From positions 48,927 through 112,926 of the IMG/VR virus record IMGVR_UViG_3300018432_000013: 64,000 bases of DNA, one strand, 5' to 3'. Below are positions 41,016 to 61,484 of the stretch, piece by piece. The position numbers were made by a program, and so were the translations under genes. The stretch is from a virus. Numbering within the stretch: the first letter of the stretch is position 1; every line of letters starts with the position of its first letter. A model generated the notes under the pieces. It saw only the letters and a list, made by a program, of their open reading frames with translations, was not told the DNA's origin and did no database searches.

Positions 41016-43652
41016 GTGCGAACACTCCCGCTGTTCGAGGCTCCGCTCCCCACACCCATCGCCACCGGCCCGCGGCTCATCCGCGAGGACAAGTGCCGAC
41101 GCTGTGAGCTCGGAGGCTTCGGCCACACGACCTGCATCCCGGCCGAAGGCGTTGAGGGGAAAGACTCGGCTCAAGGACTTGTGCTGGTGATTGGCGACTC
41201 ACCGACCTTGGAAGAAGACCGGCAAGGCCGCCCGATGATTGGCGTCAACGGGCGCTCGGTCCGGCGCGTGATCGAAAAGCACTGGGCCGGCGACTACGTG
41301 CTCGACTACGCCGTGCGCTGCCACGTCACGCGCCGCGACACAAAGGTCGTGCCGGAAGCGCAGAAGCAGTGCGCGCCCTATCTGCGCGAGACGTTCACGC
41401 AGACGATGCCCGATCGCGTACTCGTGATCGGGGGGCCCGCTGCGCGCGCTGTGCTTGGGCGTAGCGTCAAGCCATTCGACACGCGCAAGAACTACACCTG
41501 GGTCGAGCACATGAGCGGGAAGAAAGTCCCCGTGTTCGTGCTGATGGCAGTCGCAGGCTCCGTGCGAAACAGGCACCTGCTGCGCATGCTCGAAGAAGAC
41601 TTCGCGTGGGCACTCACCGTCGATCTGGCCACGCTCATGCCGCCGCTCGACCTCGATCCGAACGCCGTGTTTCACATCGTGGAAAACGAGGCCGATGCGC
41701 GCGTCGCATCCGACGCGCTGCGTGAGCACGACTGGGTAGCGTACGACTGCGAGACGGGAGGCCGGCAGTTCTCAAGCTTCTTTCGCAACGTGTGCGTGGG
41801 CGTAGCGCCCGCCGAGGGCGACACCGCGTACGTCTGGGGCCGTCAAGCCCTCGCTGACGCAGGCGCCCTCGGCGTGCTCCGAGAGCTTATGGAAGATCCC
41901 GCCGTCGGCAAGGTCGGGCACAACGAGAAATACGACAAGCTGTCGCTGCGCGCCGGCAGTGAGACCCTCGTCCAAGGCCACGTGCTCGATACGCAGCTCG
42001 CGCGTCACCTCGAGCTCCCGGGCTGCGATGCGCAGCTGAACACGGTGAGCGAGCTCGTCGGCATGGGCGGCTACTGGGAGAGCTTCTTGCCGCATCTGAA
42101 GCGCGCGCAGGAGCTCGTCAAAAAAGCGCGCACGAAGTCGAACAAGGGGCGCCAGCTCCGGCTGCTCGACGAGGACGAGGTGCTTGTCGCGGCCATCGAG
42201 CATCCCAAGGAAGACGTCGACGCGTACGCGTACGCGCTCGTGAAGTCGCCACTGCTCGAACGCTACAACGCGTGTGACTGCATCGCGACGGCGCGCGCGG
42301 CGCGCTCACGCTCGGGCTTTGAGCTCGTGACCAAGTTCCCGCCCGCGCGCAACATCTGGCGTAGCGTCGTCCGCCACACCACCAACGCGATCGAACAGAT
42401 CGAAGCGTGGGGCATCGCTGTGGACGACGGCGCGATGGAGCAGTTCAACCGCTACATCGCAGGCGAAGTAGAAAAGGTCGAGCGCCGACTCAGCCTCTAC
42501 AAGATCAACCCAGCGTCCCCAGACCAAGTTGCCGAGCTCCTCTTCGACAAACTCAAGCTGCGCAACCCGCAAAATCCGAAGTCGCGCTCGACCGACAAGA
42601 AGGCGCTCAAGGCGATGCTGGGCCAGCACCCGGTCATCGAAGACCTGCGCGAGCACAGACGGCTTGGCAAACTCGACAGCGCCTACGGCTCGCTCGGCGC
42701 GTTCGTGCGCGCGGACGGGCGCATTCATCCGAGCTTCAAGATTGACGGCGCTGAAACGGGACGCCTCTCAGTCGTCGACCCGGCCCTGCATACGCTTCCG
42801 CGCAGCAAGGACGCGGAAGGTCACGAGGAGGGCGGGCTCGTCAAGAGCATGTTCTGCGCGCGCTTAGGTTACAGACTCCTCGAGCTCGACCAGTCGCAGA
42901 TCGAGCTGCGCGCTGCCTGCATTCTTTCTGGCGACCCGGTGATGCGGCAAATCTTCACTTCAGGCGAAGACTTTCACCTCACCTCGGCCAAGCTCATCGC
43001 CCCGACGATGTGGAACATGGCACCGGAAGACGTGGGCGATGCGCAGCGCAGCGTCACGAAGAGCTTCGTGTTCGGGCTGCTCTACGGCATGACCGACTAC
43101 GGCATGGCCGCGCGCATGAACTGCTCACTCGACGAGGCTGCGCGACTGCGCGCGGCCATCATGGGCAAGTTCACGCGCCTCGCTGACTGGATCACGGAGT
43201 GCGTGCGGGAGGCGCGCAAAACAGGCCTCGTGGTGACTCCTTGGATGGGCGCGCCCGGACGCATCCGCGATCTGCACCAGATTGTGAACTTCGACGCGGG
43301 CGACTACAGCCCTGAGAACACCAAGGCGATGGCCGCCAAGCGCACGGCAGAAAACGGCGCCGTCAACACGCCCTGCCAGACACTCGCGAGTGACTTTGTG
43401 CTGCATGCGCTCTGCACGCGCATCGTGCCTTGGCTGCAGCAGGACCACTCAGTCGACGCCAAGGTCGTGATGACCGTGCACGACTCCATCCTCTTCGAGG
43501 TCCGAGAAGACCAGCTGCGGCTTGTCTCACGCACCGCGCGCCAGATGATGGCCGACTACGAGACCGGGGGGTTGCCGCTCGTGGTCGACGAGAAGGAGGG
43601 CGCGAACTGGGGTAACCTCGACAAGGTGCCAAAGCTTCAAGCAGCAGCCTAA
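41016..43652 (+). CDS. polA: Family A DNA polymerase with N-terminal family-4 uracil-DNA glycosylase-like domain
   Basis: CRRCEL...IGDSP..EEDRQGRPMIG...AVRC; Exo motifs YDCET, HNEKYD, YNACD; Pol motifs TGRLS, DQSQIELR, KSFVFGLLYG, VHDS. Confidence 0.93.
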   Translation: MRTLPLFEAPLPTPIATGPRLIREDKCRRCELGGFGHTTCIPAEGVEGKDSAQGLVLVIGDSPTLEEDRQGRPMIGVNGRSVRRVIEKHWAGDYVLDYAVRCHVTRRDTKVVPEAQKQCAPYLRETFTQTMPDRVLVIGGPAARAVLGRSVKPFDTRKNYTWVEHMSGKKVPVFVLMAVAGSVRNRHLLRMLEEDFAWALTVDLATLMPPLDLDPNAVFHIVENEADARVASDALREHDWVAYDCETGGRQFSSFFRNVCVGVAPAEGDTAYVWGRQALADAGALGVLRELMEDPAVGKVGHNEKYDKLSLRAGSETLVQGHVLDTQLARHLELPGCDAQLNTVSELVGMGGYWESFLPHLKRAQELVKKARTKSNKGRQLRLLDEDEVLVAAIEHPKEDVDAYAYALVKSPLLERYNACDCIATARAARSRSGFELVTKFPPARNIWRSVVRHTTNAIEQIEAWGIAVDDGAMEQFNRYIAGEVEKVERRLSLYKINPASPDQVAELLFDKLKLRNPQNPKSRSTDKKALKAMLGQHPVIEDLREHRRLGKLDSAYGSLGAFVRADGRIHPSFKIDGAETGRLSVVDPALHTLPRSKDAEGHEEGGLVKSMFCARLGYRLLELDQSQIELRAACILSGDPVMRQIFTSGEDFHLTSAKLIAPTMWNMAPEDVGDAQRSVTKSFVFGLLYGMTDYGMAARMNCSLDEAARLRAAIMGKFTRLADWITECVREARKTGLVVTPWMGAPGRIRDLHQIVNFDAGDYSPENTKAMAAKRTAENGAVNTPCQTLASDFVLHALCTRIVPWLQQDHSVDAKVVMTVHDSILFEVREDQLRLVSRTARQMMADYETGGLPLVVDEKEGANWGNLDKVPKLQAAA

Positions 43653-45455: not shown

Positions 45456-47471
45456 ATGACCACCAAAAAGAAAATCACCGAGGCTGTCGCAGACAGCGCA
45501 AGCGACCAGCGCAAGCTCGACGCGGCCAAGAAAGTGCTCGACGGTGTATTCGGTAAGCGCATGGCTGTCGGCAGCAACTCCGAAGTCGACGAGGTGATCC
45601 CCACAGGTCTCGAGGTGGTCGACCGCTATGTGCTTGGCATCGGTGGCTGGCCCGTGCGGCGCGTCTGCGAACTCTTCTCTGACCCTTCGGCGGGTAAGGC
45701 GCAGCCCATCTCGACTCTGCTGCCGACCCCGAACGGGTGGCGGCGGTTGGGTGATCTGCGGCCAGGAGATCTCGTATTTGGATCTGACGGTAAGCCAACA
45801 CAGGTCTTGGGTGTCTTTCCCCAAGGCCGCAAACGAACTTATCGCGTGCACTTCCGCGACGGCGCTTCAACGCGCTGCTGCGGCCAGCACCTCTGGGCGG
45901 TAAATACCAAAGCACGCCTACGTCGAGGCCATGCAGTGCTGGTGCGCAGCACGAAGGAGCTACTCAACGACCTACATTGGAAGGGACCGCACGGCATCAA
46001 GGAAGCCAAGTGGCGGGTGCAGCTTGCTGCACCCGTACAGTTCCCCGAAGCCGATTTACCCGTCGACCCATACGTTATGGGTGCACTGCTTGGGGACGGG
46101 TGCCTCACGCGAGGCGCGTGCATCTCCATGCACAACCCTGAACTAGCCGCGCGTGTGCTCGCGCGACTCCCAACGGGTGACAGTGGCGTCTTCGACGGTA
46201 AATGGCTACGCATTCGGCGAGCCGTACGTGGACACGACCATCGTGGTGTGATGCTGCAGTCAACTACGCTCGCAACGCTCAGTCACTATGGCTTGCGACA
46301 TCGAGCGGAGGCCAAGTTCGTTCCCGCGCCGTACTTACTCGGATCCGTCGAGCAGCGACTGGAGCTGCTCCGAGGGATTTTCGATACGGATGGGCACGCT
46401 GACAAAGGGTATGTCGACTTTGGTACAGTGAGCGCCCAGCTTGCCGAGGACGTAGTAACACTGGTGCGCTCCCTGGGTGGTGTCGCCCAGGTACGCGTGA
46501 AAGGGCAATCTACGTACGAATACCGTGGTGAAACGCGCCAAGGACAGATCGTCTACCGCGTTTGTGCGCGGCTTGATGATCTCATTCCCGTCACGCTCTC
46601 GAAGCATCTTGCGCGGTACAAACGCACTGAGCGCATTCCGCGCACGCTCACTCGAATCGAGCGGGATCGAATCGAGGAGTCCGTGTGCATCAAGGTTGCC
46701 GCACAGAACGGCCTCTACGTGACCGAGGACTTCATCGTTACACACAACACAAGCCTCGGCTTTGCAGCGCTCGCGAGCGCGCAGCGCGAAGGTGGACTTG
46801 CGATCCTGATCGAAACCGAGGATGCGCTCCAGGTGGCGCGTGCCACGATCTTCGGGGTGAACCTGAGCGAAGTGTTTCTCTCTGAGCCCGTTTCGATCGA
46901 AGACGTGCTCGAAGGGATTCGCCTTGGACTTGCTGCCATCCCCGAGGGTGTTGGCCCAAACCTCATCGTATGGGATTCCATCGCCATGTCCGCGCTCGCT
47001 GCGACCAACGAAAAAGGGCAGGGCGCCAAAGGCGTCGGGCGTAAAGCTGCGCTGATGAGCGAGCAGTGGCCAAGCCTCACACGCGCCGCGGCGGACAAGC
47101 GCACGGCGATGCTGCTCATCAATCAGTCCCGCACGAAGATCGGGCTTGTGTTTGGCAACCCCACCACGACCCCGGGCGGAGACACGCACAAGTTCACGGC
47201 CAGCATACGCTTGCAGATGTGGGCGAGCAGCTCGCCCGTGAAGCAGGGCGACAAAGAGATCGGCGTCGACACGACCATCAAGGCCGTCAAGAACAAGCTC
47301 GCCATTCCGTTTCGCAAGACCAAGATTCGGCTCTTGTTCGAGTCCGGCTGGGACGACCGCTGGTCGACGGTGACGCACGCAAAGGACCAGGGCGTAATCA
47401 AAGACAGCGTCAAGATGAGCGACGCCGCGCATGCAGAAGCGCGCCGGGCGCTCGGGTGGAGCACCGAATGA
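45456..47471 (+). CDS. recA: RecA/UvsX recombinase interrupted by an intein
   Basis: IPTG..VD..LGIGGWP..R..ELF, P-loop AGK|T, VWDSIA, INQSR, TTPGG. Confidence 0.93.
   Translation: MTTKKKITEAVADSASDQRKLDAAKKVLDGVFGKRMAVGSNSEVDEVIPTGLEVVDRYVLGIGGWPVRRVCELFSDPSAGKAQPISTLLPTPNGWRRLGDLRPGDLVFGSDGKPTQVLGVFPQGRKRTYRVHFRDGASTRCCGQHLWAVNTKARLRRGHAVLVRSTKELLNDLHWKGPHGIKEAKWRVQLAAPVQFPEADLPVDPYVMGALLGDGCLTRGACISMHNPELAARVLARLPTGDSGVFDGKWLRIRRAVRGHDHRGVMLQSTTLATLSHYGLRHRAEAKFVPAPYLLGSVEQRLELLRGIFDTDGHADKGYVDFGTVSAQLAEDVVTLVRSLGGVAQVRVKGQSTYEYRGETRQGQIVYRVCARLDDLIPVTLSKHLARYKRTERIPRTLTRIERDRIEESVCIKVAAQNGLYVTEDFIVTHNTSLGFAALASAQREGGLAILIETEDALQVARATIFGVNLSEVFLSEPVSIEDVLEGIRLGLAAIPEGVGPNLIVWDSIAMSALAATNEKGQGAKGVGRKAALMSEQWPSLTRAAADKRTAMLLINQSRTKIGLVFGNPTTTPGGDTHKFTASIRLQMWASSSPVKQGDKEIGVDTTIKAVKNKLAIPFRKTKIRLLFESGWDDRWSTVTHAKDQGVIKDSVKMSDAAHAEARRALGWSTE
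45699..46748 (+). mobile_element. Class 3 intein (350 aa) with LAGLIDADG homing endonuclease
   Basis: Starts AQP, ends THN with Thr at +1; HLW, VCIKV and YVT (WCT triad); MGALLGDG and LRGIFDTDG. Confidence 0.88.
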
Positions 47472-48037: not shown

Positions 48038-49179
48038 CCAAATATGCCCTGATCGGCGACCCCCACGTCGGCAACTTCTCGCGCTTCGGAGGCGTGAAGA
48101 AGCTCGGCATGAACCGGCGTTGTGAGCTCACCGTCAAAGCGTTGCGCGATGCGCTCCTGCGCGCTGTCGCTGAGAAGGCCGACTACGCTGTGATCCTCGG
48201 TGACCTCTTCGACTCGATGAAGCCCGAGCCGCAGCTCATCGACACGCTACGGCAGACGTTTCGTGCGTTCGCCAAAGATCTGCAAATCATCCTTCTCAAA
48301 GGCAACCACGATTCAGCAAGCGACGAGCCGCGCGACACAGCGCTCTATGCCGTGATCGAAAAGCACGTCATCGTGGTCGACCAGCCACGCATCCTGCGCG
48401 AAGCCGATCCGTACCAAGCAACCCAAGGGCCCTGGAAGTCGTGCAACCCGCCGCTCGTTCTGGTGCCCTTCCGATCGGGGCCTGTGATCGAGTGGCTCCC
48501 CGGCTTGCTGGAAGAGCTCCACGTGCCAACAGGTGCCATCCTGTGCCTGCATGCCGGCATCAAGGACGAGGAGACGGCGCCGTGGCTGCTGGGCGCCCCA
48601 GACGCCATCGAGATGAGCGAGCTCGATGCGCTGATGGACAAGCACGGTATTGACCTCGTGTTCGCCGGCAACTGGCACGAGCAGCGAAACTGGCCGCACG
48701 AGGGCATCTTCCAAGTCGGTGCGCTCTGTCCGACAGGCTTTTCCAACCTCGGCACAGACGAGTACGGGCACGTCAAGGTGGTCAGCCTAGAGGCGGGCGA
48801 CAACCAAGCGTTCGTGCAGGATCACTACATCGCAGGCCCGCGCTTCCTGAAGCTTGGGCCGGACGACATGCCGACCTCGTACCTGCCTGAGGAGCACAAC
48901 GACCGCCTGTTCATCGAGTGGAAGGTGAACGCGGAGAGCCTTCACGCAGCGCGCGCCGAGCTCGACCAGTTGACCGAGCAGGGGCTCATCGAGGGCGGCA
49001 TCGCGCTCCCTGACACCTCTCAGGCGACCGAAGGTCTCAGGCAGGCCGCACTCGCCGCCAAGCACACCGTGGGGATTGCCGAGGCGGTGGGCGCGTTCGT
49101 GGCCAAGCTGCAGATGCCGCCGCTCGCCGATCGCGAGTCAGTGCACGCGCGAATCCGCGCATACACAGGCCTCGAGTAG
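48034..49179 (+). CDS. SbcD/Mre11-like metallophosphoesterase nuclease
   Basis: GDPH, LGDLFD, GNHD, GNWH. Confidence 0.85.
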   Translation: MTKYALIGDPHVGNFSRFGGVKKLGMNRRCELTVKALRDALLRAVAEKADYAVILGDLFDSMKPEPQLIDTLRQTFRAFAKDLQIILLKGNHDSASDEPRDTALYAVIEKHVIVVDQPRILREADPYQATQGPWKSCNPPLVLVPFRSGPVIEWLPGLLEELHVPTGAILCLHAGIKDEETAPWLLGAPDAIEMSELDALMDKHGIDLVFAGNWHEQRNWPHEGIFQVGALCPTGFSNLGTDEYGHVKVVSLEAGDNQAFVQDHYIAGPRFLKLGPDDMPTSYLPEEHNDRLFIEWKVNAESLHAARAELDQLTEQGLIEGGIALPDTSQATEGLRQAALAAKHTVGIAEAVGAFVAKLQMPPLADRESVHARIRAYTGLE

Positions 49180-54837: not shown

Positions 54838-55218
54838 TTATGCGAGTCGCAGGGGGATTCCGGCGTCGTGCATGTGCTGGTAATCAGTATCTGCAGCGAC
54901 CAAATCGCACCCGTGGGTAAGCGCGTAGGAAGCAATCAGCAAGTCGATTGTCTTGGCGGTGACGCCTTTGGTGCGCAGATGCTGGCCGAGGTTCCCGGCA
55001 TAGGTCCATAGCGCGTGCGGCTGCCGCAGGTGGTGACATTGGGCAAAGAGGCCCATGACGTGTTGCCGCTCGGACTCACGCAAGCCGCGGCTAATCTCCG
55101 TGAGCACCGGCCCACAGAGCGCTGCCTCGCCGTCGCGAAGCGCCAACTCGACGCTGTCAGCCACTTCGCCAGGCCCGCGGAAGAATGCGATCCAAGCAGA
55201 TGTATCGACGAGCTTCAC
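54838..55218 (-). CDS. vapC: PIN-domain toxin
   Basis: LVDTSAWIAFFRG...VLTE...TIDLLIA...D.DY. Confidence 0.9.
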   Translation of the reverse strand: MKLVDTSAWIAFFRGPGEVADSVELALRDGEAALCGPVLTEISRGLRESERQHVMGLFAQCHHLRQPHALWTYAGNLGQHLRTKGVTAKTIDLLIASYALTHGCDLVAADTDYQHMHDAGIPLRLA

Positions 55219-55418
55219 GAGCGTGTGTATTCGAGGTCGAGGTCAAAGTCGATCTTGCCGCGCAGACTCGCAAGCTCGCGTAGCTTCTCACGCCGATCAA
55301 ACTCTTCGAGCGAGGCTACCAGCGTCTCCGTGATGCCTTTGCCGGTGGCCTGTTGCACACGCTCAAGCAATGCGGCAGGCAGGTTGACGGTGACCTTCTT
55401 GATGTCGGCTTGGTCCAT
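55215..55418 (-). CDS. vapB: RHH antitoxin
   Basis: KVTVNLP..LL...TGKGITET...LRGKIDFDLDL; overlaps vapC. Confidence 0.85.
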   Translation of the reverse strand: MDQADIKKVTVNLPAALLERVQQATGKGITETLVASLEEFDRREKLRELASLRGKIDFDLDLEYTRS

Positions 55419-55544
55419 GGCCGAGTATGGCAAAAACCATGGTTCGCGCCAGCTCCTTTCATGTATCAGGGAGGGCAGTGACGAGTTCGCAGAAGGAAGG
55501 TTATGTAAACTAAGGTGGGATAGGGTGCGACTGACCAGTGCGTG

Positions 55545-55628
55545 GTCCCAGCTTCAAAGGTGCTGAGCTGCCTCTGTTTCAATGACCTGCTACGAGTCTC
55601 AGCTTCGAAGGTGCTGAGCTACCTTTGC
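55545..55628 (-). CRISPR. Detached CRISPR mini-array (2 degenerate repeats, about 23-nt spacer)
   Basis: gtcccagcttcaaaggtgctgagctgcc and gtctcagcttcgaaggtgctgagctacc match the main array repeat. Confidence 0.75.
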
Positions 55629-55876
55629 CGATCAGGGTCTTCGACGTGAACGTGCAGCCAGACTTTCCCGTCCGCGTCCGGTACGAGCTTGTTGAGATCA
55701 GTGCCGCCTTGTAGCGGTGGCAGTTTGGGCATCAGCTCCCGGCACGCTTTACAGATGACCATGAGCGGCGGGATGTACGTGAAGCCGCCGCTCGGGTACT
55801 CCGTATAGGAGCCCGGCCTTGCTTTCACGCCTGTGGGCTTGCCGCATTTCATGCATGCGATCGTCTCATCGCTCAT
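55619..55876 (-). CDS. Small Zn-finger protein; stop codon lies inside the mini-array repeat
   Basis: CMKC...CKAC. Confidence 0.6.
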   Translation of the reverse strand: MSDETIACMKCGKPTGVKARPGSYTEYPSGGFTYIPPLMVICKACRELMPKLPPLQGGTDLNKLVPDADGKVWLHVHVEDPDRQR

Positions 55877-55910
55877 GACCCCCCCCCCTATGCCGCTCCG
55901 CAGGTGATCG

Positions 55911-56288
55911 TTACTCGATACGCACGGGCACACCCTTGCTGTCGATGACCCGGCCCTCGGCCAGCTCGACGAGCGTGCGTTTCACGCTGTCCCGTAGTTG
56001 GTCCTGTGCGGCGTCTACGATGGGCTTGGGTGCATTCTTCAAGCCGTACATCTTGGCAGCGATTGAATCGGCGAGCGTGTCCACCAAGCCCGGTGTGTTG
56101 AGCACGAGCGCTGCAATCGCGGCGGGATCGGTGGCCGTCTGCAGGAGTTCACGTCGGTACTCGGCGATGGTCTCAGCGGCTGAGAGACGATCAGGCGTTC
56201 CCTTGATCGCACCGATGGTTGCCCATTCGATCACTTCGTCAGCGACTTCCCAATCGCGCGTAGCGATTCGTTCCTGGTGGACGCTCAT
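55911..56288 (-). CDS. Hypothetical protein
   Basis: MSVHQER..., GAGG RBS. Confidence 0.6.
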   Translation of the reverse strand: MSVHQERIATRDWEVADEVIEWATIGAIKGTPDRLSAAETIAEYRRELLQTATDPAAIAALVLNTPGLVDTLADSIAAKMYGLKNAPKPIVDAAQDQLRDSVKRTLVELAEGRVIDSKGVPVRIE

Positions 56289-56421
56289 GGCTTGCCTCGT
56301 CCGAGCAGTTTGAGTAGCCGGTCGTAGCAAGCGCGGCACATCCAAAACGCGCCGTCCGCACCATGCACGCACATCACGGAAGGTTGGCCGCAGCCGCATG
56401 GACTCTGCTTTGGAGGCTCTT

Positions 56422-56634
56422 TCATGGTTCACCCGGGATCCAAATCCCCTCACTCGCGAGTTCAGCGGATGCGAGTCGTGTTGCCTCGCGCAGCGAGAGC
56501 CCGCCATCAATGTGCGCGATGGCGATGCGTTCGAGGTAGCGATAGGGCACCACGCCATCGGACAGGCGGATGTGCTCATCGCTGGGGTTTACGCCGTGCA
56601 CCGGGACGCGCTCAGTTTTTTCGAGTGCTGTCAT
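56422..56634 (-). CDS. Hypothetical protein
   Basis: ERIAI..IDGGLS..EA motif. Confidence 0.55.
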   Translation of the reverse strand: MTALEKTERVPVHGVNPSDEHIRLSDGVVPYRYLERIAIAHIDGGLSLREATRLASAELASEGIWIPGEP

Positions 56635-56705
56635 CGCTACCGATCTTGCTTATACCAGCCGCAGTGGCCATGGCAGCAAGTCCGGCCGTCGTCCCGCGCG
56701 GCAAA

Positions 56706-56954
56706 TCACTCGCCGAGCTTCGCATCAGGCTGGTTGAACCAGTCCGCTGGCACCTCTGAACGCAGTTGCGATTCAAGCGCGCGCATCGCTGTCGCGGTAT
56801 TGCGCGCGAGTGCCGCACTCTTCGGCGAGTGCTCAGCGCTGAACTCGGCCATCTCGTCGAGCGACGGATAGAGCTTCGCGAGCTCATCGGCCACCTGGAG
56901 CTTGGCCTGGTGGACTTTACCCTCAGACGTTTCGAAAATCCGCGCGTCGACCAT
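56706..56954 (-). CDS. Hypothetical protein
   Basis: GGAG RBS; coupled to the upstream ORF. Confidence 0.55.
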   Translation of the reverse strand: MVDARIFETSEGKVHQAKLQVADELAKLYPSLDEMAEFSAEHSPKSAALARNTATAMRALESQLRSEVPADWFNQPDAKLGE

Positions 56955-56956
56955 GA

Positions 56957-57157
56957 TCACTCTCCACTTGGGTAGCTGTACCAATCGTCACCATCGTCCT
57001 CATCTGAGAGCGCGCACGCTTGTCCTGCAGGTGTGTGGGTCTGCATGTGCTTGCGCTTTTCGGCGAGGCAATCGCCGCAGATGACGTGCCGTGCTTTCGA
57101 GCTCGGAAGCCGGAGGACCCGGCCACACCCCATGCACCGTGCAACATCCACGCGCAT
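56957..57157 (-). CDS. Small Zn-finger protein
   Basis: CMGC...CGDC; GGAGG RBS about 50 nt after the last array repeat. Confidence 0.55.
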   Translation of the reverse strand: MRVDVARCMGCGRVLRLPSSKARHVICGDCLAEKRKHMQTHTPAGQACALSDEDDGDDWYSYPSGE

Positions 57158-57213
57158 CCCGCCCTCCGCGTCCAATGTGAGCCCATCCAGGCTACACCGC
57201 GTGAGTGCCTGTT

Positions 57214-59589
57214 GTCTCAGCTTCTTGAGCGCTGAAGCAGCCATTGCTTTGCACCTGTACACGATGTCTCAGCTTCTCAGGCACTGAGCGGCCGTTGCCG
57301 CTGCGACAGGCGACAAGTCTCAGCTTCTTGGGGCGCTGAGCAGTCGATAGCGTTACACCAAACTCGGTACCGTCTCAGCTTGAAAAGCGCTGAGCAGCCT
57401 TGGGTGGAAAACATGGTGAAGTTGTCCCAATGGTCTCAGTTTTGAAGGCACTGAGCTACCGCACGAAACATGCTGCGAGAAGTTGTCACGGTGGTCTCAG
57501 CTTCAAGGGCGCTGAGCAGCCGTTGCTTTACGCAGGGCCTGAGTCACCTGTTGTCTCAGCTTCCCAAAGGCGCTGAGCAGCCGTTGCCGTTTGCAGTTTT
57601 CGATCACTTCCCTGTCGCTTTTCTCATCCACGGCTCAGCTTTAGAGGCGCTGAGCAGCCGTTGCCGATCTAAGCTGCGCAATTTACAGGCAGTCTCAGCT
57701 TTGAAGGCGCTGAGCAACACCTATCGCGACTTGACAGCCCCTCATCTTCTGAATCTCAGCTTTAAAGGCACTGAGCAGCCATTGCAGCAGGAGATCGCCG
57801 CGTTGTCTCAGCTTCAAAGGCGCTGAGCGGCCCAGACGCTTTGATTCCGTGCGGTGGAGTCACTCACATCTCAGCTTGGAGGGCGCTGAGCAGCCGCTGC
57901 CAAAGGGGTTCGTTGTTGCGGTCTCAGGCTTCAAGGGCGCTGAGCAGCCGCTGATTCGTAAAGAAAGCCCCCGGCTCTCTCAGCTTCGAAGGCGCTGAGC
58001 AGCCCATTGTCGAGCTTCGCCACTTGTTGTCTCAGCCTCGCAGGGCGCTGAGCGGCCATTACCGTATGCCGTCACATGGAAGCGTCTCAGCTTCAAGGGC
58101 GCTGAGCAGCCGCTGCCAGAGGTGGGTTCGTTGGTTCGGTCTCAGCATTGAAAAAGCGCTGAGCAGCCATCGCCACTGGCAACTATCTAGTCTCAGCTTC
58201 AAAAGGCGCTGAGCAGCCATTGTGAGTTCGATGGCTGCAAGTCTCAGCTTCAAGGGCGCTGAGCAGCCTTTGCGAACTTCTTCATGGACGCGTTTCAGCT
58301 TCAAAGGCGCTGAACAACCATTTGCGTCTGGTCGTCTCAGCTTCCAGGGCGCTGAGCAGCCGTTGTTGCACGTGCAGCACGGTGCGCATATGAGTTCCGA
58401 CGTCTCAGCTTCGCGGGCGCTGAGCAGCCATTGTTGCAACCTGGGACGAACAGTGGTCTCGGCTTCAAAGGCGCTGAGCAGCCATCGCAACTACGCGCGA
58501 CGGTGCCGTACGTCTCAGTTTCAAAAGGCACTGAGCAGCCAGCAGTCCCCAGTCTCAGCTTCAAGGGCGCTGAGCAACCGTTGCTGCCATCGGTCTACCT
58601 TGGGCCATCTCGTGCGCCAGGTTGTCTCAGCTTCAAGGGCGCTGAACAGCCATCGCAACTACGCGCGACGGCTGCGGTGGCCGCGATTCGACGCATGTCT
58701 CAGCTTCAAAGGCGCTGAGCAGCCGCCACTCGGTTCGCCATCTCAGCTTCAAGGGCGCTGAGCAGCCGTCGCTACCCTCAGGGAAGGGGGCTCATGTTCT
58801 GAAGATCTCAGCTTCAATGGGGCGCTGAGCAGCCGTTGTTCTTTACCCGTGGCACTTCTTGTCTCAGCTTCAAAGGCGCTGAGCAGCAGATCAACTCACC
58901 TTCAATCTGTCTCAGCTTCAATGGGCGCTGAGCAGCCGTTGCTACAGCCAAGGCACCAGGCGAGCATCTCTGAACGCTCGGTCTCAGCTTCAAGGGCGCT
59001 GAGCAGCCATTGCTGCCGTGACCGCACCAGCCTGATGACTGCGTCTCAGCTTCAAGGACGCTGAGCAACCGTTGCTACCTGGACAACTTAAGCTCGACGA
59101 CGACGCTAGAGGTCTCAGCTTCTAGGGCGCTGAGCAACCGTTGCTACGCTCTGAGAACACGGCCAACCTCGTCGCGGAACTGACCGTCTCAGCTTCTAGG
59201 GCGCTGAGCAGCCGTTGCTACGATATGCGGCGAAACTGCGTGACCGTGTTCTACCAGTCTCAGCTTCAAGGGCGCTGAGCAACCATTATTTGCTGCTCAT
59301 GCACAAGCCGCCCGGGGAACCATATGGATGTCTGTCTCAGCTTCAAGGGGCGCTGAGCAACCGTTGCAGCGCATCCTTCCTGCGGAACCTCGCAGCGTCC
59401 ACTTCGAGGTCTCAGCTTCAAGGGCGCTGAGCAGCCACTGCAGCAACGTGGCGCTAGTCGGCCGCGGCGTCATGTTCGAGGTCTCAGCTTCAAGGGCGCT
59501 GAGCAGCCATTGCAGCCACCGCATCCATCGCTCGCCGAGACTTGGCCGCTGTCGTCTCAGCTTCAAGGGCGCTGAGCAACCATTGCAGC
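57214..59589 (-). CRISPR. CRISPR array, about 40 repeats; 36-nt repeat GCTGCAAYGGYTGCTCAGCGCCCTTGAAGCTGAGAC; leader at 59590-59666
   Basis: Counted 40 copies of gtctcagc-N9/10-gctgagc with largely unique spacers. Period is about 72 nt near the cas gene and 40-65 nt for most distal units. Confidence 0.95.
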
Positions 59590-59666
59590 AGCTCCGCCAC
59601 AAGGCGAATCATCATATGAAGTTGTCAACAGTGCTGCGAGCGGCCCCGAGATCCGCGCGCTTCACC

Positions 59667-61484
59667 TTACTCCGCAACGTCCGTAGCAGCAGGCTGCGCA
59701 TGGCGCTTCCGAAACCGCTCCGCGCGCTTGCTGGGCTTGCGAGCGGGTGCGGGGTTTGTCGCGTCACCGGAGTGATCACGTGTGAACCGACGCAGCAGAT
59801 TGATGGCTGCGTTATGATCCTGATCCCACAGCTCACCGCAGTACTCGCAACGATGCCAGAGCTCTTCGCCCTGCTCCCACGAGCAAACGCCTCCGCACGC
59901 ATGGCAATGGCTCGTGGTGCCGCTCGCATCGACGCTGATGACGAGCCCGCCTTCGCGTTGCACTGCCTGCGTGAGGCACTGCCGAAACTCGCCGGGTGCG
60001 CTCGCATGCAGCTGCGCGCGCTGCGCGAGCGGCGCATCCTCGCCTTGCTCCGGGGCCTTCAAGCGCTTGGCCGTCGCCAGATCGAACTGCTCAATCACCA
60101 CACGCCCATAGGCGCGCGCGATCTGCGCAGCGGTGCAGCGGTAGAGCTCGCGCCGCGCAAGCAGTGCCTTACGCTGCGCATCGACCTCCCACTGATACAG
60201 GTGCCGCGAACGATGCAGCCAGCGCTCCATGGCCGCGAAGATGCGCTCGTCTCCTACGAAGCGCGTACGCCGCCAGTCGAGCACGAGACGCCGTAGCCGC
60301 CCGTGTGAGCGCCACTGCCCGAGGTGCGGGCGCTCCCGTGCAAGCCACTCCGGGGCCTTTCCCGCATCGAGCCAGCGAGCGAGCCAGCGGACGGCGCGGT
60401 TGAAGTGCAGATCTTGAATCTCCCTCAAGTCTCGTGCCTTGCGCAGACGCATCCGCACTGACTCCGGCATCACCACCTCACGGTGATTTCCTTGGTCGTC
60501 AGCGCAGTAGGCCACGCGCAAGCTCCCGTCAGGGCGCTGTCGCCAGCCGAGATCGAGTGCCACGATTCCCGGGCGCTCAGGCATCACTGCCGGCTCGCGC
60601 GCGTACGTGACGCTGACCGTCCACTGCTCACGAAAACCGAGGACACGAAGGCGCACCACCGCGCCTTTGATGCGCGCATCGTCAGGGATCGGGCGGTGAA
60701 GGATCAAAGGGAACACCGCCCAGACAGGCGAACGCCCTGCACTCTCCACGCGCATCCACAAGCGCGTGCGTGAACAGCGACGACGCACCCCTCGCGACGA
60801 CGCATGCCACGCATCAGGCGATACGGGCTCGATGCGCAGCCGCGTGTCCTCGCAGCCGTAGAGCTCGGCGACAGTCATGCCGCCTTGGACCTGCACACCG
60901 ATGCGCCCTTCTGCACTGCCTTCGCCGGCCGCAGAGATGCGCTCACGACCGCGCGCACGGCGAAACGACGGATCGATGGTCGCCTTACGGGCCTGCTCGG
61001 CCGAGGCTTCTTCAAGCAGGTACGTTCCCCACCACGGCGCGCGCATCGCACGCAGCGCCTTGCTCCAAATCTTCGCGCGCTCGTCGAGCTGTTCGACGGC
61101 TGCACGCAGCTCAGCATTATCGCGCGCTGCCTGGCGGGCGTCTTTCAATGCGACGCGTGCGACTCGCAAGGCACTCTGCACGTCCTTGGCACGCTGATCG
61201 AGGTCCGCCGTATCGACGCGGCGACGCGCTTCCTTGCGTACGCCCTTGATGGCTTCGCGCAGGCTCATCAGCTCCGCAGCAAGCTCCTCGACCCGCGCCT
61301 CGACTGACTCGAGATCCACGTACTTTCGCCGCAGGTCGCGATAGACCGCGCGTCGGCAACGCTCCAGCGCGATGAGCTCATTGTAATACCGGGCGCCAAG
61401 GCGCATCTGCTGACGCACGACATCTGCGTTTTCGATCGGCGCAAGGCAACCGTACTGCGCAACGCGTGCTTCGAGTGTGGTCAT
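59667..61484 (-). CDS. cas12m: Compact type V CRISPR effector, Cas12m (V-M / V-U1)-like, TnpB-derived RuvC protein
   Basis: 605 aa; long N-terminal coiled coil, IGVQVQ, LHRPIP.DA.I, RuvC-I VALDLGWR, QWRS, RuvC-II VVIE, APG, Zn finger CHAC/CEYC, RuvC-III WDQDHNAA; abuts the array. Confidence 0.82.
   Translation of the reverse strand: MTTLEARVAQYGCLAPIENADVVRQQMRLGARYYNELIALERCRRAVYRDLRRKYVDLESVEARVEELAAELMSLREAIKGVRKEARRRVDTADLDQRAKDVQSALRVARVALKDARQAARDNAELRAAVEQLDERAKIWSKALRAMRAPWWGTYLLEEASAEQARKATIDPSFRRARGRERISAAGEGSAEGRIGVQVQGGMTVAELYGCEDTRLRIEPVSPDAWHASSRGVRRRCSRTRLWMRVESAGRSPVWAVFPLILHRPIPDDARIKGAVVRLRVLGFREQWTVSVTYAREPAVMPERPGIVALDLGWRQRPDGSLRVAYCADDQGNHREVVMPESVRMRLRKARDLREIQDLHFNRAVRWLARWLDAGKAPEWLARERPHLGQWRSHGRLRRLVLDWRRTRFVGDERIFAAMERWLHRSRHLYQWEVDAQRKALLARRELYRCTAAQIARAYGRVVIEQFDLATAKRLKAPEQGEDAPLAQRAQLHASAPGEFRQCLTQAVQREGGLVISVDASGTTSHCHACGGVCSWEQGEELWHRCEYCGELWDQDHNAAINLLRRFTRDHSGDATNPAPARKPSKRAERFRKRHAQPAATDVAE

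Follow-up and report, generated by a model that had tools for sequence, protein, structure and literature searches.

The locus and its type

The DNA analysed here is the right-hand 64 kb (positions 48,927 to 112,926; hereafter the window) of IMG/VR record IMGVR_UViG_3300018432_000013, a complete virus genome of 112,926 bp with direct terminal repeats, from a soil phage that carries a CRISPR array next to the gene of its effector, Cas12m. The array has two parts, a short regular one on the side of the gene and a much longer distal one, in which the units are cut to about the length of a mature CRISPR RNA (crRNA), the repeats are diversified and the repeat fold is conserved. An earlier note, made from the letters alone, had described this distal part as streamlined rather than decaying, and the old end of the array does look maintained and not rotting, with targets of its guides not found. 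In contigs of the probable source soil metagenome the depth is even and there are no variants. The features that carry the argument are the following.

59667-61484, minus strand: cas12m effector gene, 605 amino acids (P0001), from structure, PADLOC and Pfam matches
59590-59666, minus strand: short intergenic leader from the cas12m stop codon to the first repeat, read from the sequence
58981-59589, minus strand: leader-side regular array, nine units of 62-77 nucleotides (nt) each, from a local-alignment scan
57214-58980, minus strand: distal compact array of 31 units (median length 55 nt, mode 51 nt), from the scan, pairing and a covariance model

The effector matches known Cas12m structures over its full length (PDB 23vw_A, Cas12m, E 7e-83; 8hhl, Cas12m2, E 5e-30; 8pm4, E 2e-17), the PADLOC model Cas12u1 (E 1e-97) and the Pfam family PF07282, a C-terminal zinc-ribbon TNB domain. 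The canonical RuvC positions D311/E465/D556 (D-E-D) are present and invariant across 22 homologues. The array begins 77 nt past the cas12m stop codon on the same strand; a consensus scan found no consensus sigma-70 promoter, and transcription may therefore read through from cas12m. Terminator-like sites, by consensus scan, are just two, both within cas12m, which is below chance expectation. Judged by sequence, the effector and the array are of type V-M (Cas12m), with a homologous effector, an adjacent array on the same strand, 36-nt repeats and a pseudoknot. The absence of an adaptation module and of a trans-activating crRNA (tracrRNA) agrees with this assignment: Cas1 and Cas2 have no match anywhere in the complete 112,926-bp genome, and the covariance model found no opposite-strand copy that could be a tracrRNA-like anti-repeat in the 64-kb window, a result at the sequence level only. 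Near-identical repeats with near-constant spacers, as in a canonical array, are seen in the nine leader-side units alone, and standard array finders would probably halt at about nine units.

Unit lengths along the array

The 28-nt repeat core, used in a local-alignment scan, located 40 cores in 57214-59581, plus two orphans. Counted from the Cas12m side, the leader-side units measure 73, 72, 75, 77, 71, 74, 69, 62 and 72 nt from start to start (median of the nine units, 72.5 nt) and are composed of a 36-nt repeat and a spacer of 26-38 nt, mostly 33-38 nt; in one of them the repeat 5' flank contains an insertion. The distal lengths run 48, 56, 65, 43, 73, 72, 40, 56, 54, 68, 42, 51, 51, 51 and 55 nt, and continue with 55, 52, 56, 53, 63, 52, 61, 60, 79, 59, 61, 61, 55, 51 and 52 nt, so that the 31 units cover 40-79 nt, and their 31 repeat sequences are mostly different. 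The array, its coordinates and the drop from about 72 nt to compact units, as described in the earlier note, were thus all recovered.

The account of what has been lost, given there as the repeat 5' flank and the spacer 3' end, has to be narrowed. Each distal unit keeps an intact scaffold core of 28-29 nt, and in 21 of the 31 the repeat is recognisable over 33 nt, the five bases past the 28-nt core (the -33 to -29 flank) being kept. From most of the compact units the repeat's first 3 nt and part of the spacer are gone, and 10 units have lost more of the flank; the spacer is indeed shortened, and the flank loss usually concerns those first 3 nt only. With a 33-nt repeat assumed, the spacers of compact units are 16-23 nt long, with a peak at 17-18 nt, and the room after the core is at least 20 nt in 36 of 39 units. 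Full-size units occur amid the compact ones (58552, 58624 and 58909), and these, together with the vestigial flank bases, argue for shrinkage from 72-nt units.

A pseudoknot kept by paired changes

In the minus-strand RNA the end of the repeat reads GGC, U, G, a 6-nt arm, a 9-nt loop (GCC...AA), the complementary arm and AC. The corresponding fold is a pseudoknot, in which a 6-bp helix (CUCAGC/GCUGAG) is combined with a 3-bp helix between the GGC of the 5' flank and the GCC that opens the loop; the scaffold is completed by a G.A closing pair, and AC follows ahead of the guide. Over nine pairs in 42 copies, 98.2% of cells hold a standard pair, 4 cells being doubly changed (compensated), 16 changed on one side to G-U and 6 unpaired. 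None of 500 shuffles matched the observed percentage paired or the covariation score, and partners slid out of register paired in only 25-44% of cells. The two helices survive in 96-99% of cells, and compensatory changes are seen inside lineages as well as from one lineage to another.

Every stem change listed in the earlier note was found in its place: the compensated pairs at 57433 and 58512 (C-G replaced by U-A) and at 58292 (U-A in place of the outer pair), the G-U wobbles in the minus-strand RNA at 57266, 57753 and 58624, and the A.C mismatch at 58456. Further mismatches lie at 57317 and 58861, and one-base bulges, absent from that list, at 57214 and 57921. In nine copies C(-26) is replaced by U, giving U.G in the flank-loop helix, the orientation of which flips between lineages, from GGC:GCC in the window to GCC:GGC in the relative L059 described below.

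The covariance model, built from the repeats of the window and those of relatives, retrieved exactly 42 copies, every one from the minus strand, with scores of 27-43 bits, the next best hit in the 64 kb reaching 12.8 bits; an Rfam search gave no match, and the folding of a stretch of four units has little advantage over that of shuffles (z -1.6). None of the distal scaffolds is truncated, and 27 units fall below 72 nt by 4 nt or more; the probability that uniform deletions would miss every 28-nt core is about 2e-12 for single deletions, and below 2e-6 by a loose bound. As a separate observation, the guide at 58219-58240 has 8 nt complementary to the 5' flank of the next repeat, and the resulting hairpin could compete with the scaffold fold.

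The changes in the 31 distal repeats are distributed as follows.

Two stem arms: 11/372 cells changed, 3%
Flank-loop partners: 7/93 on the 5' side, 8%, and 3/93 on the 3' side, 3%
Closing G(-24): 0/31, 0%
Last two loop bases: 3/62, 5%
Four central loop positions: 44/124, 35%

Substitution is therefore not uniform across the stem and the loop (3% against 35%), and the difference between the stem and the loop centre is large (Fisher 5e-20, on cells that are not independent). Loop variation is confined to the four central positions plus indels; the statement that the loop varies freely holds for its centre, and has to be withdrawn for its first three bases (the GCC that pairs with the GGC flank) and for the last AA. 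The non-uniform substitution, the compensatory and G-U changes, and the lack of any truncated scaffold despite 27 shortened units make us confident that purifying selection acts on the RNA structure of the distal scaffolds. The earlier proposal of about 30 old guides under purifying selection as minimal crRNAs is borne out by pairing and rates for the scaffolds; it is not supported for the sequence of the guides, related pairs of which differ at 4 of 17 positions.

Comparison with studied Cas12m systems

PmCas12m has a mature crRNA of about 50 nt, in which a repeat part of about 33 nt is joined to a guide of about 17 nt; cleavage takes place behind repeat nt 2-3 and behind guide nt 17-18, the best guide length is 17 nt, and the crRNA pseudoknot joins G(-28)-C(-26) with G(-15)-C(-17) (bioRxiv 10.64898/2026.03.26.714355). 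The numbering of the pseudoknot in the window (-28 to -26 with -17 to -15) agrees with this. In Cas12m2, 29 scaffold nt are ordered, the heteroduplex has 17 bp, and the 6-bp helix adjacent to the guide is accompanied by a G.A closing pair and a flipped-out base (PMC10442227). The crRNA of GoCas12m is likewise about 50 nt, and studied Cas12m proteins, D-E-D variants included, protect by binding and not by cutting (PMC11013384). Since 33 and 18 nt add up to 51 nt, which matches the about 33 + 17 nt of the published mature crRNA, a 51-nt unit of the window corresponds to about one mature crRNA.

The system thus resembles the type V-M systems MmCas12m/Cas12m2, GoCas12m, MsCas12m and PmCas12m in its homologous effector, its 36-nt repeat with a 6-bp helix followed by AC, its flank-loop pseudoknot, and its lack of a tracrRNA-like anti-repeat and of adaptation genes, and the size of its compact units matches their mature crRNA of about 50 nt with a guide of about 17 nt. 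Described type V-M arrays, however, consist of regular 36 + 36 units, whereas here three quarters of the array DNA is cut to about mature crRNA length and the repeat sequence varies from unit to unit. Phage-borne Cas12m has been the subject of one earlier report, on MvCas12m of the myxophage lineage MV-1 (bioRxiv 10.64898/2026.09.14.751636), also a phage with direct terminal repeats, in which a D-E-D Cas12m of about 610 amino acids lies beside an array without cas1, cas2 or cas4, and no spacer targets were found; compared by its description, that array has one consensus repeat and eight spacers, and compact or diverged units are not mentioned. The idea of removing the parts of repeat and spacer that processing discards, which fits an unchanged set of guides into less DNA, is also that of engineered shortened Cas9 arrays (RNA Biol 2023, PMC10478742); those arrays were designed and serve Cas9, whereas the array of the window is natural, belongs to Cas12m and was apparently shortened by deletion under selection. 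In stand-alone CRISPR repeat-like regulatory RNAs and degenerate terminal repeats (bioRxiv 10.1101/2023.03.03.530964), diverged repeats also keep their fold, the spacers are short, and a binding-only role was suggested as well; these are single units, usually with partial matches to cas-promoter targets, in contrast to the 31 tandem units without self-match found here. A literature search returned no paper on natural arrays trimmed to mature crRNA length with covarying scaffolds, the engineered Cas9 arrays being the closest in idea.

Recurrence in relatives and in other Cas12m arrays

The nearest homologues of the effector (P0002-P0014) are 55-65% identical to it. The closest relative examined that has a long array, L059, has a Cas12m with 51% identity and 36 units of mostly 46-50 nt (mode 46, range 39-55), none of them 72 nt long; its 46-nt unit equals a 29-nt scaffold plus a 17-nt guide. 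Pairing in the L059 hairpin reaches 98.9%, and covariation affects three of the six pairs, with 18 doubly changed and 16 G-U cells, and none of 500 shuffles reached the observed pairing, covariation score or doubly compensated count. Units of 51 nt with stems differing at three pairs are found in L057, and L060 and L061 have compact, strongly diversified arrays with many different stems, which were read by eye, the rule-based hairpin scan being too noisy there. By the rule-based scan, about 60 other Cas12m arrays have mostly 72-75-nt units, and units shorter than 66 nt make up 9% of the first quartile but 33% of the last (Fisher 5e-6); diverged compact tails were also recognised with the covariance model in L019, L073, L132, L010 and L155. 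This recurrence indicates that the pattern is a property of Cas12m arrays that is extreme in the present clade. An IMG/VR pattern scan for the same repeat gave single chance matches only, and a single-protein locus search for close relatives with the same repeat gave none.

Two smaller observations concern such relatives. In L154, a contig of a metagenome-assembled genome with a 55% identical Cas12m and no array after the gene, a solo scaffold lies about 1.1 kb upstream (L154:4904-4932); its flank is the same, and its stem is compensated, with A-U where the window has G-C. In L057:2910-3440 and L058:3856-4190 a small zinc-ribbon open reading frame (ORF) is placed between cas12m and a mini-array of one to three units.

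Related guides

Three guide pairs differ at 4 of 17 positions (57416-57432 and 57477-57493; 57904-57920 and 58122-58138; 59392-59408 and 59464-59480), where 0.013 pairs with at most 4 mismatches in 17 are expected, and the scaffold stems stay paired; L059 also has guide families of this kind. Some of the differences resemble third-codon-position changes, as if variants of one gene were targeted. In two distal guide pairs the common sequence extends beyond the 17-nt guide, and the units at 57868 and 58084 share an unusual repeat-flank variant; such shared variants (57868/58084 and 58456/58624) show unit duplication. The divergence of the pairs looks more like diversification against variable targets than like a fixed set.

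Interpretation of the distal units

Starting from the observed anatomy, conservation pattern, covariation and recurrence in relatives, the distal part is best explained as the old end of a phage type V-M array that would have been trimmed by deletions to about mature crRNA length, purifying selection having left every scaffold foldable. The array would be transcribed on the minus strand, downstream of cas12m, and each repeat RNA would fold into the Cas12m pseudoknot. By analogy with studied Cas12m proteins, the effector would bind bases -29 to -1 and use a guide of about 17 nt, and processing would discard the repeat's first 2-3 nt and the guide past nt 17-18. In old units the parts discarded by processing would have been deleted from the DNA itself, leaving a unit of 51 nt that would amount to about one finished crRNA; the likely driver would be genome-size pressure in a phage without adaptation genes. 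We consider it probable that the distal units are trimmed but still working crRNA genes. If they behave as their studied counterparts do, their RNAs would be processed, loaded and used as guides, and DNA would be bound without being cut.

Several results weigh against this interpretation. Three units keep just 11, 14 and 15 nt after the core, less than a 17-nt guide, and therefore some units are probably dead. The pair 58456/58624 shares the repeat-adjacent 3' part of the spacer and not the 5' seed, so that not every shortening is a simple 3' trim; this one informative pair does not suit the loss of the spacer 3' end described in the earlier note. Cells counted in the statistics are not independent, as the repeats share descent, and the ratio of G-U to A.C changes, 16:3 by cells, is just 6:3 by column; all G-U cases but one are sense-strand C-to-U changes, and a mutational bias could thus contribute. 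The floor in spacer length could reflect a spacing need of binding or processing and not guide use. The searches for targets also gave nothing: the whole array, searched by blastn, had only chance-level matches in 50,697 phage records (E 0.7) and none in 72,556 plasmids; no guide matched the phage's own genome at up to 2 mismatches in 18 nt, exact 20-mers of the two newest spacers were absent from IMG/VR, and the guides had 35 matches in 1.7 Mb of Cas12m loci, compared with 21 for shuffled guides.

Degenerate repeats are common at the far end of CRISPR arrays, and the distal units might be dead remnants in neutral decay, alike through recent origin or recombinational homogenisation. The three spacers too short to guide, the two bulges and the mismatches at 58456, 57317 and 58861 are what such decay would leave. 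Homogenisation, however, would hit the loop and the stem alike, whereas change falls at 3% on one and 35% on the other and tracks the known protein-contact map; compensatory pairs are present, no core has been truncated despite 27 deletions, and relatives have the same pattern with much stronger covariation, all of which makes decay very unlikely. It could also be that the short units never were 72 nt long, having arisen by duplication and divergence or by insertion of short spacers, and that the nine 72-nt units came later, through host adaptation in trans. This would suit L059, with its tight 46-nt peak and no 72-nt unit, the related guide pairs whose shared flank variants show that units are duplicated, and the fairly abrupt step from regular to short units near 58980. 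It does not suit the full-size units (72, 73, 72 and 68 nt) among the compact ones and the continuous intermediate sizes, the vestige of the 36-nt repeat at -33 to -29 in 21 of 31 distal units, or the gradual climb of the short fraction with distance from the gene in other arrays, and we regard such a compact origin as quite unlikely. A role of the scaffolds that is independent of guides, as a protein sponge or decoy, as an element of RNA stability or processing, or for spacing, with the gap of about 17 nt merely separating binding sites, would explain why constraint is seen on the length of the guides and not on their sequence, and why solo scaffolds occur elsewhere in the genome and in L154; anti-CRISPRs in the form of phage RNAs that mimic CRISPR repeats are known. 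This role is nevertheless highly improbable, given that the cognate effector is encoded beside the array, that the leader-side units are ordinary crRNA units and that the gap fits the 17-bp heteroduplex of studied Cas12m proteins.

The earlier note went further and saw in the array about 30 old guides forming a fixed regulatory repertoire, hard-wired to silence host or phage genes, with repeat diversification selected against recombinational loss. Binding without cutting by studied Cas12m proteins, D-E-D variants included (PMC11013384), would be in keeping with this, as would the maintained scaffolds and the short exact runs shared by adjacent distal repeats, about 12 nt at most, in contrast to up to 29 nt on the leader side. 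Yet no guide matches the phage's own genome at up to 2 mismatches in 18 nt, none is common to other Cas12m loci beyond chance, their related pairs have diverged in a way more like the tracking of variable targets, and the leader end looks like ordinary spacer turnover; a fixed repertoire is thus unlikely and the claim was not upheld. The protective role of diversification was not borne out either, because neighbouring repeats resemble one another to the same degree as random pairs do, both in the window and in L059; any reduction in the risk of recombination may follow from drift instead of being a function that was selected.

Trimming of working units to the size of their product would mean that a CRISPR array can age by a route other than decay, the DNA shedding what processing discards and the handle staying foldable. 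Should the distal units work, phage Cas12m systems would have several times as many guides as array finders report; the related preprint lists eight spacers. The variation can be read as a natural mutational scan of the Cas12m scaffold, which marks the variable bases, the bases that must pair and a minimal unit of 46-51 nt, and it is useful for the design of compact, non-repetitive multiplex Cas12m arrays for gene silencing or for base or epigenome editing. It also makes testable how arrays without Cas1-Cas2 gain and keep guides. More tentatively, phage Cas12m arrays without adaptation genes might in general mature into non-repetitive multi-guide operons with units cut to one mature crRNA each (a scaffold of 29-33 nt and a guide of 17-18 nt), scaffolds that drift but covary, and new guides that arise by unit duplication and point mutation and not by spacer acquisition; this would be an inherited repertoire for silencing hosts or rival phages, and a slowly evolving one.

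Orphan scaffolds and neighbouring genes

Beyond the distal end of the main array lie two further features.

55632-57213, minus strand: about 1.6 kb of small ORFs between the main array and the orphan scaffolds, no family match
55545-55631, minus strand: two orphan scaffold units 51 nt apart, from the alignment scan and the covariance model

The orphan scaffolds start at 55545 and 55596, and the latter holds a compensated pseudoknot pair (U-A). The small ORFs have no Pfam or PHROG match, one of them (56923-57186) being zinc-ribbon-like, and the block resembles either an insertion in the array or cargo carried inside it. A whole-genome scan found a single further scaffold copy of the same type beyond the window, a solitary, full-scoring and intergenic one at G000:C1:4158-4186 (= L001:1497-1525), plus strand in sense and far from the array; it has its own downstream guide, for which there is no second match in the genome.

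Among the other genes of the window are those of a portal protein, a large terminase, a family A polymerase, a DnaB-type helicase and a RecA with an intein. The RecA is split by a LAGLIDADG intein-like domain and the family A DNA polymerase has an N-terminal uracil-DNA-glycosylase-like domain, at window positions 45456-47471 and 41016-43652. At 54838-55433, just past the orphan repeats, a PIN-domain ORF (E 2e-11) and a 72-amino-acid minus-strand ORF before it form a VapBC-like toxin-antitoxin pair.

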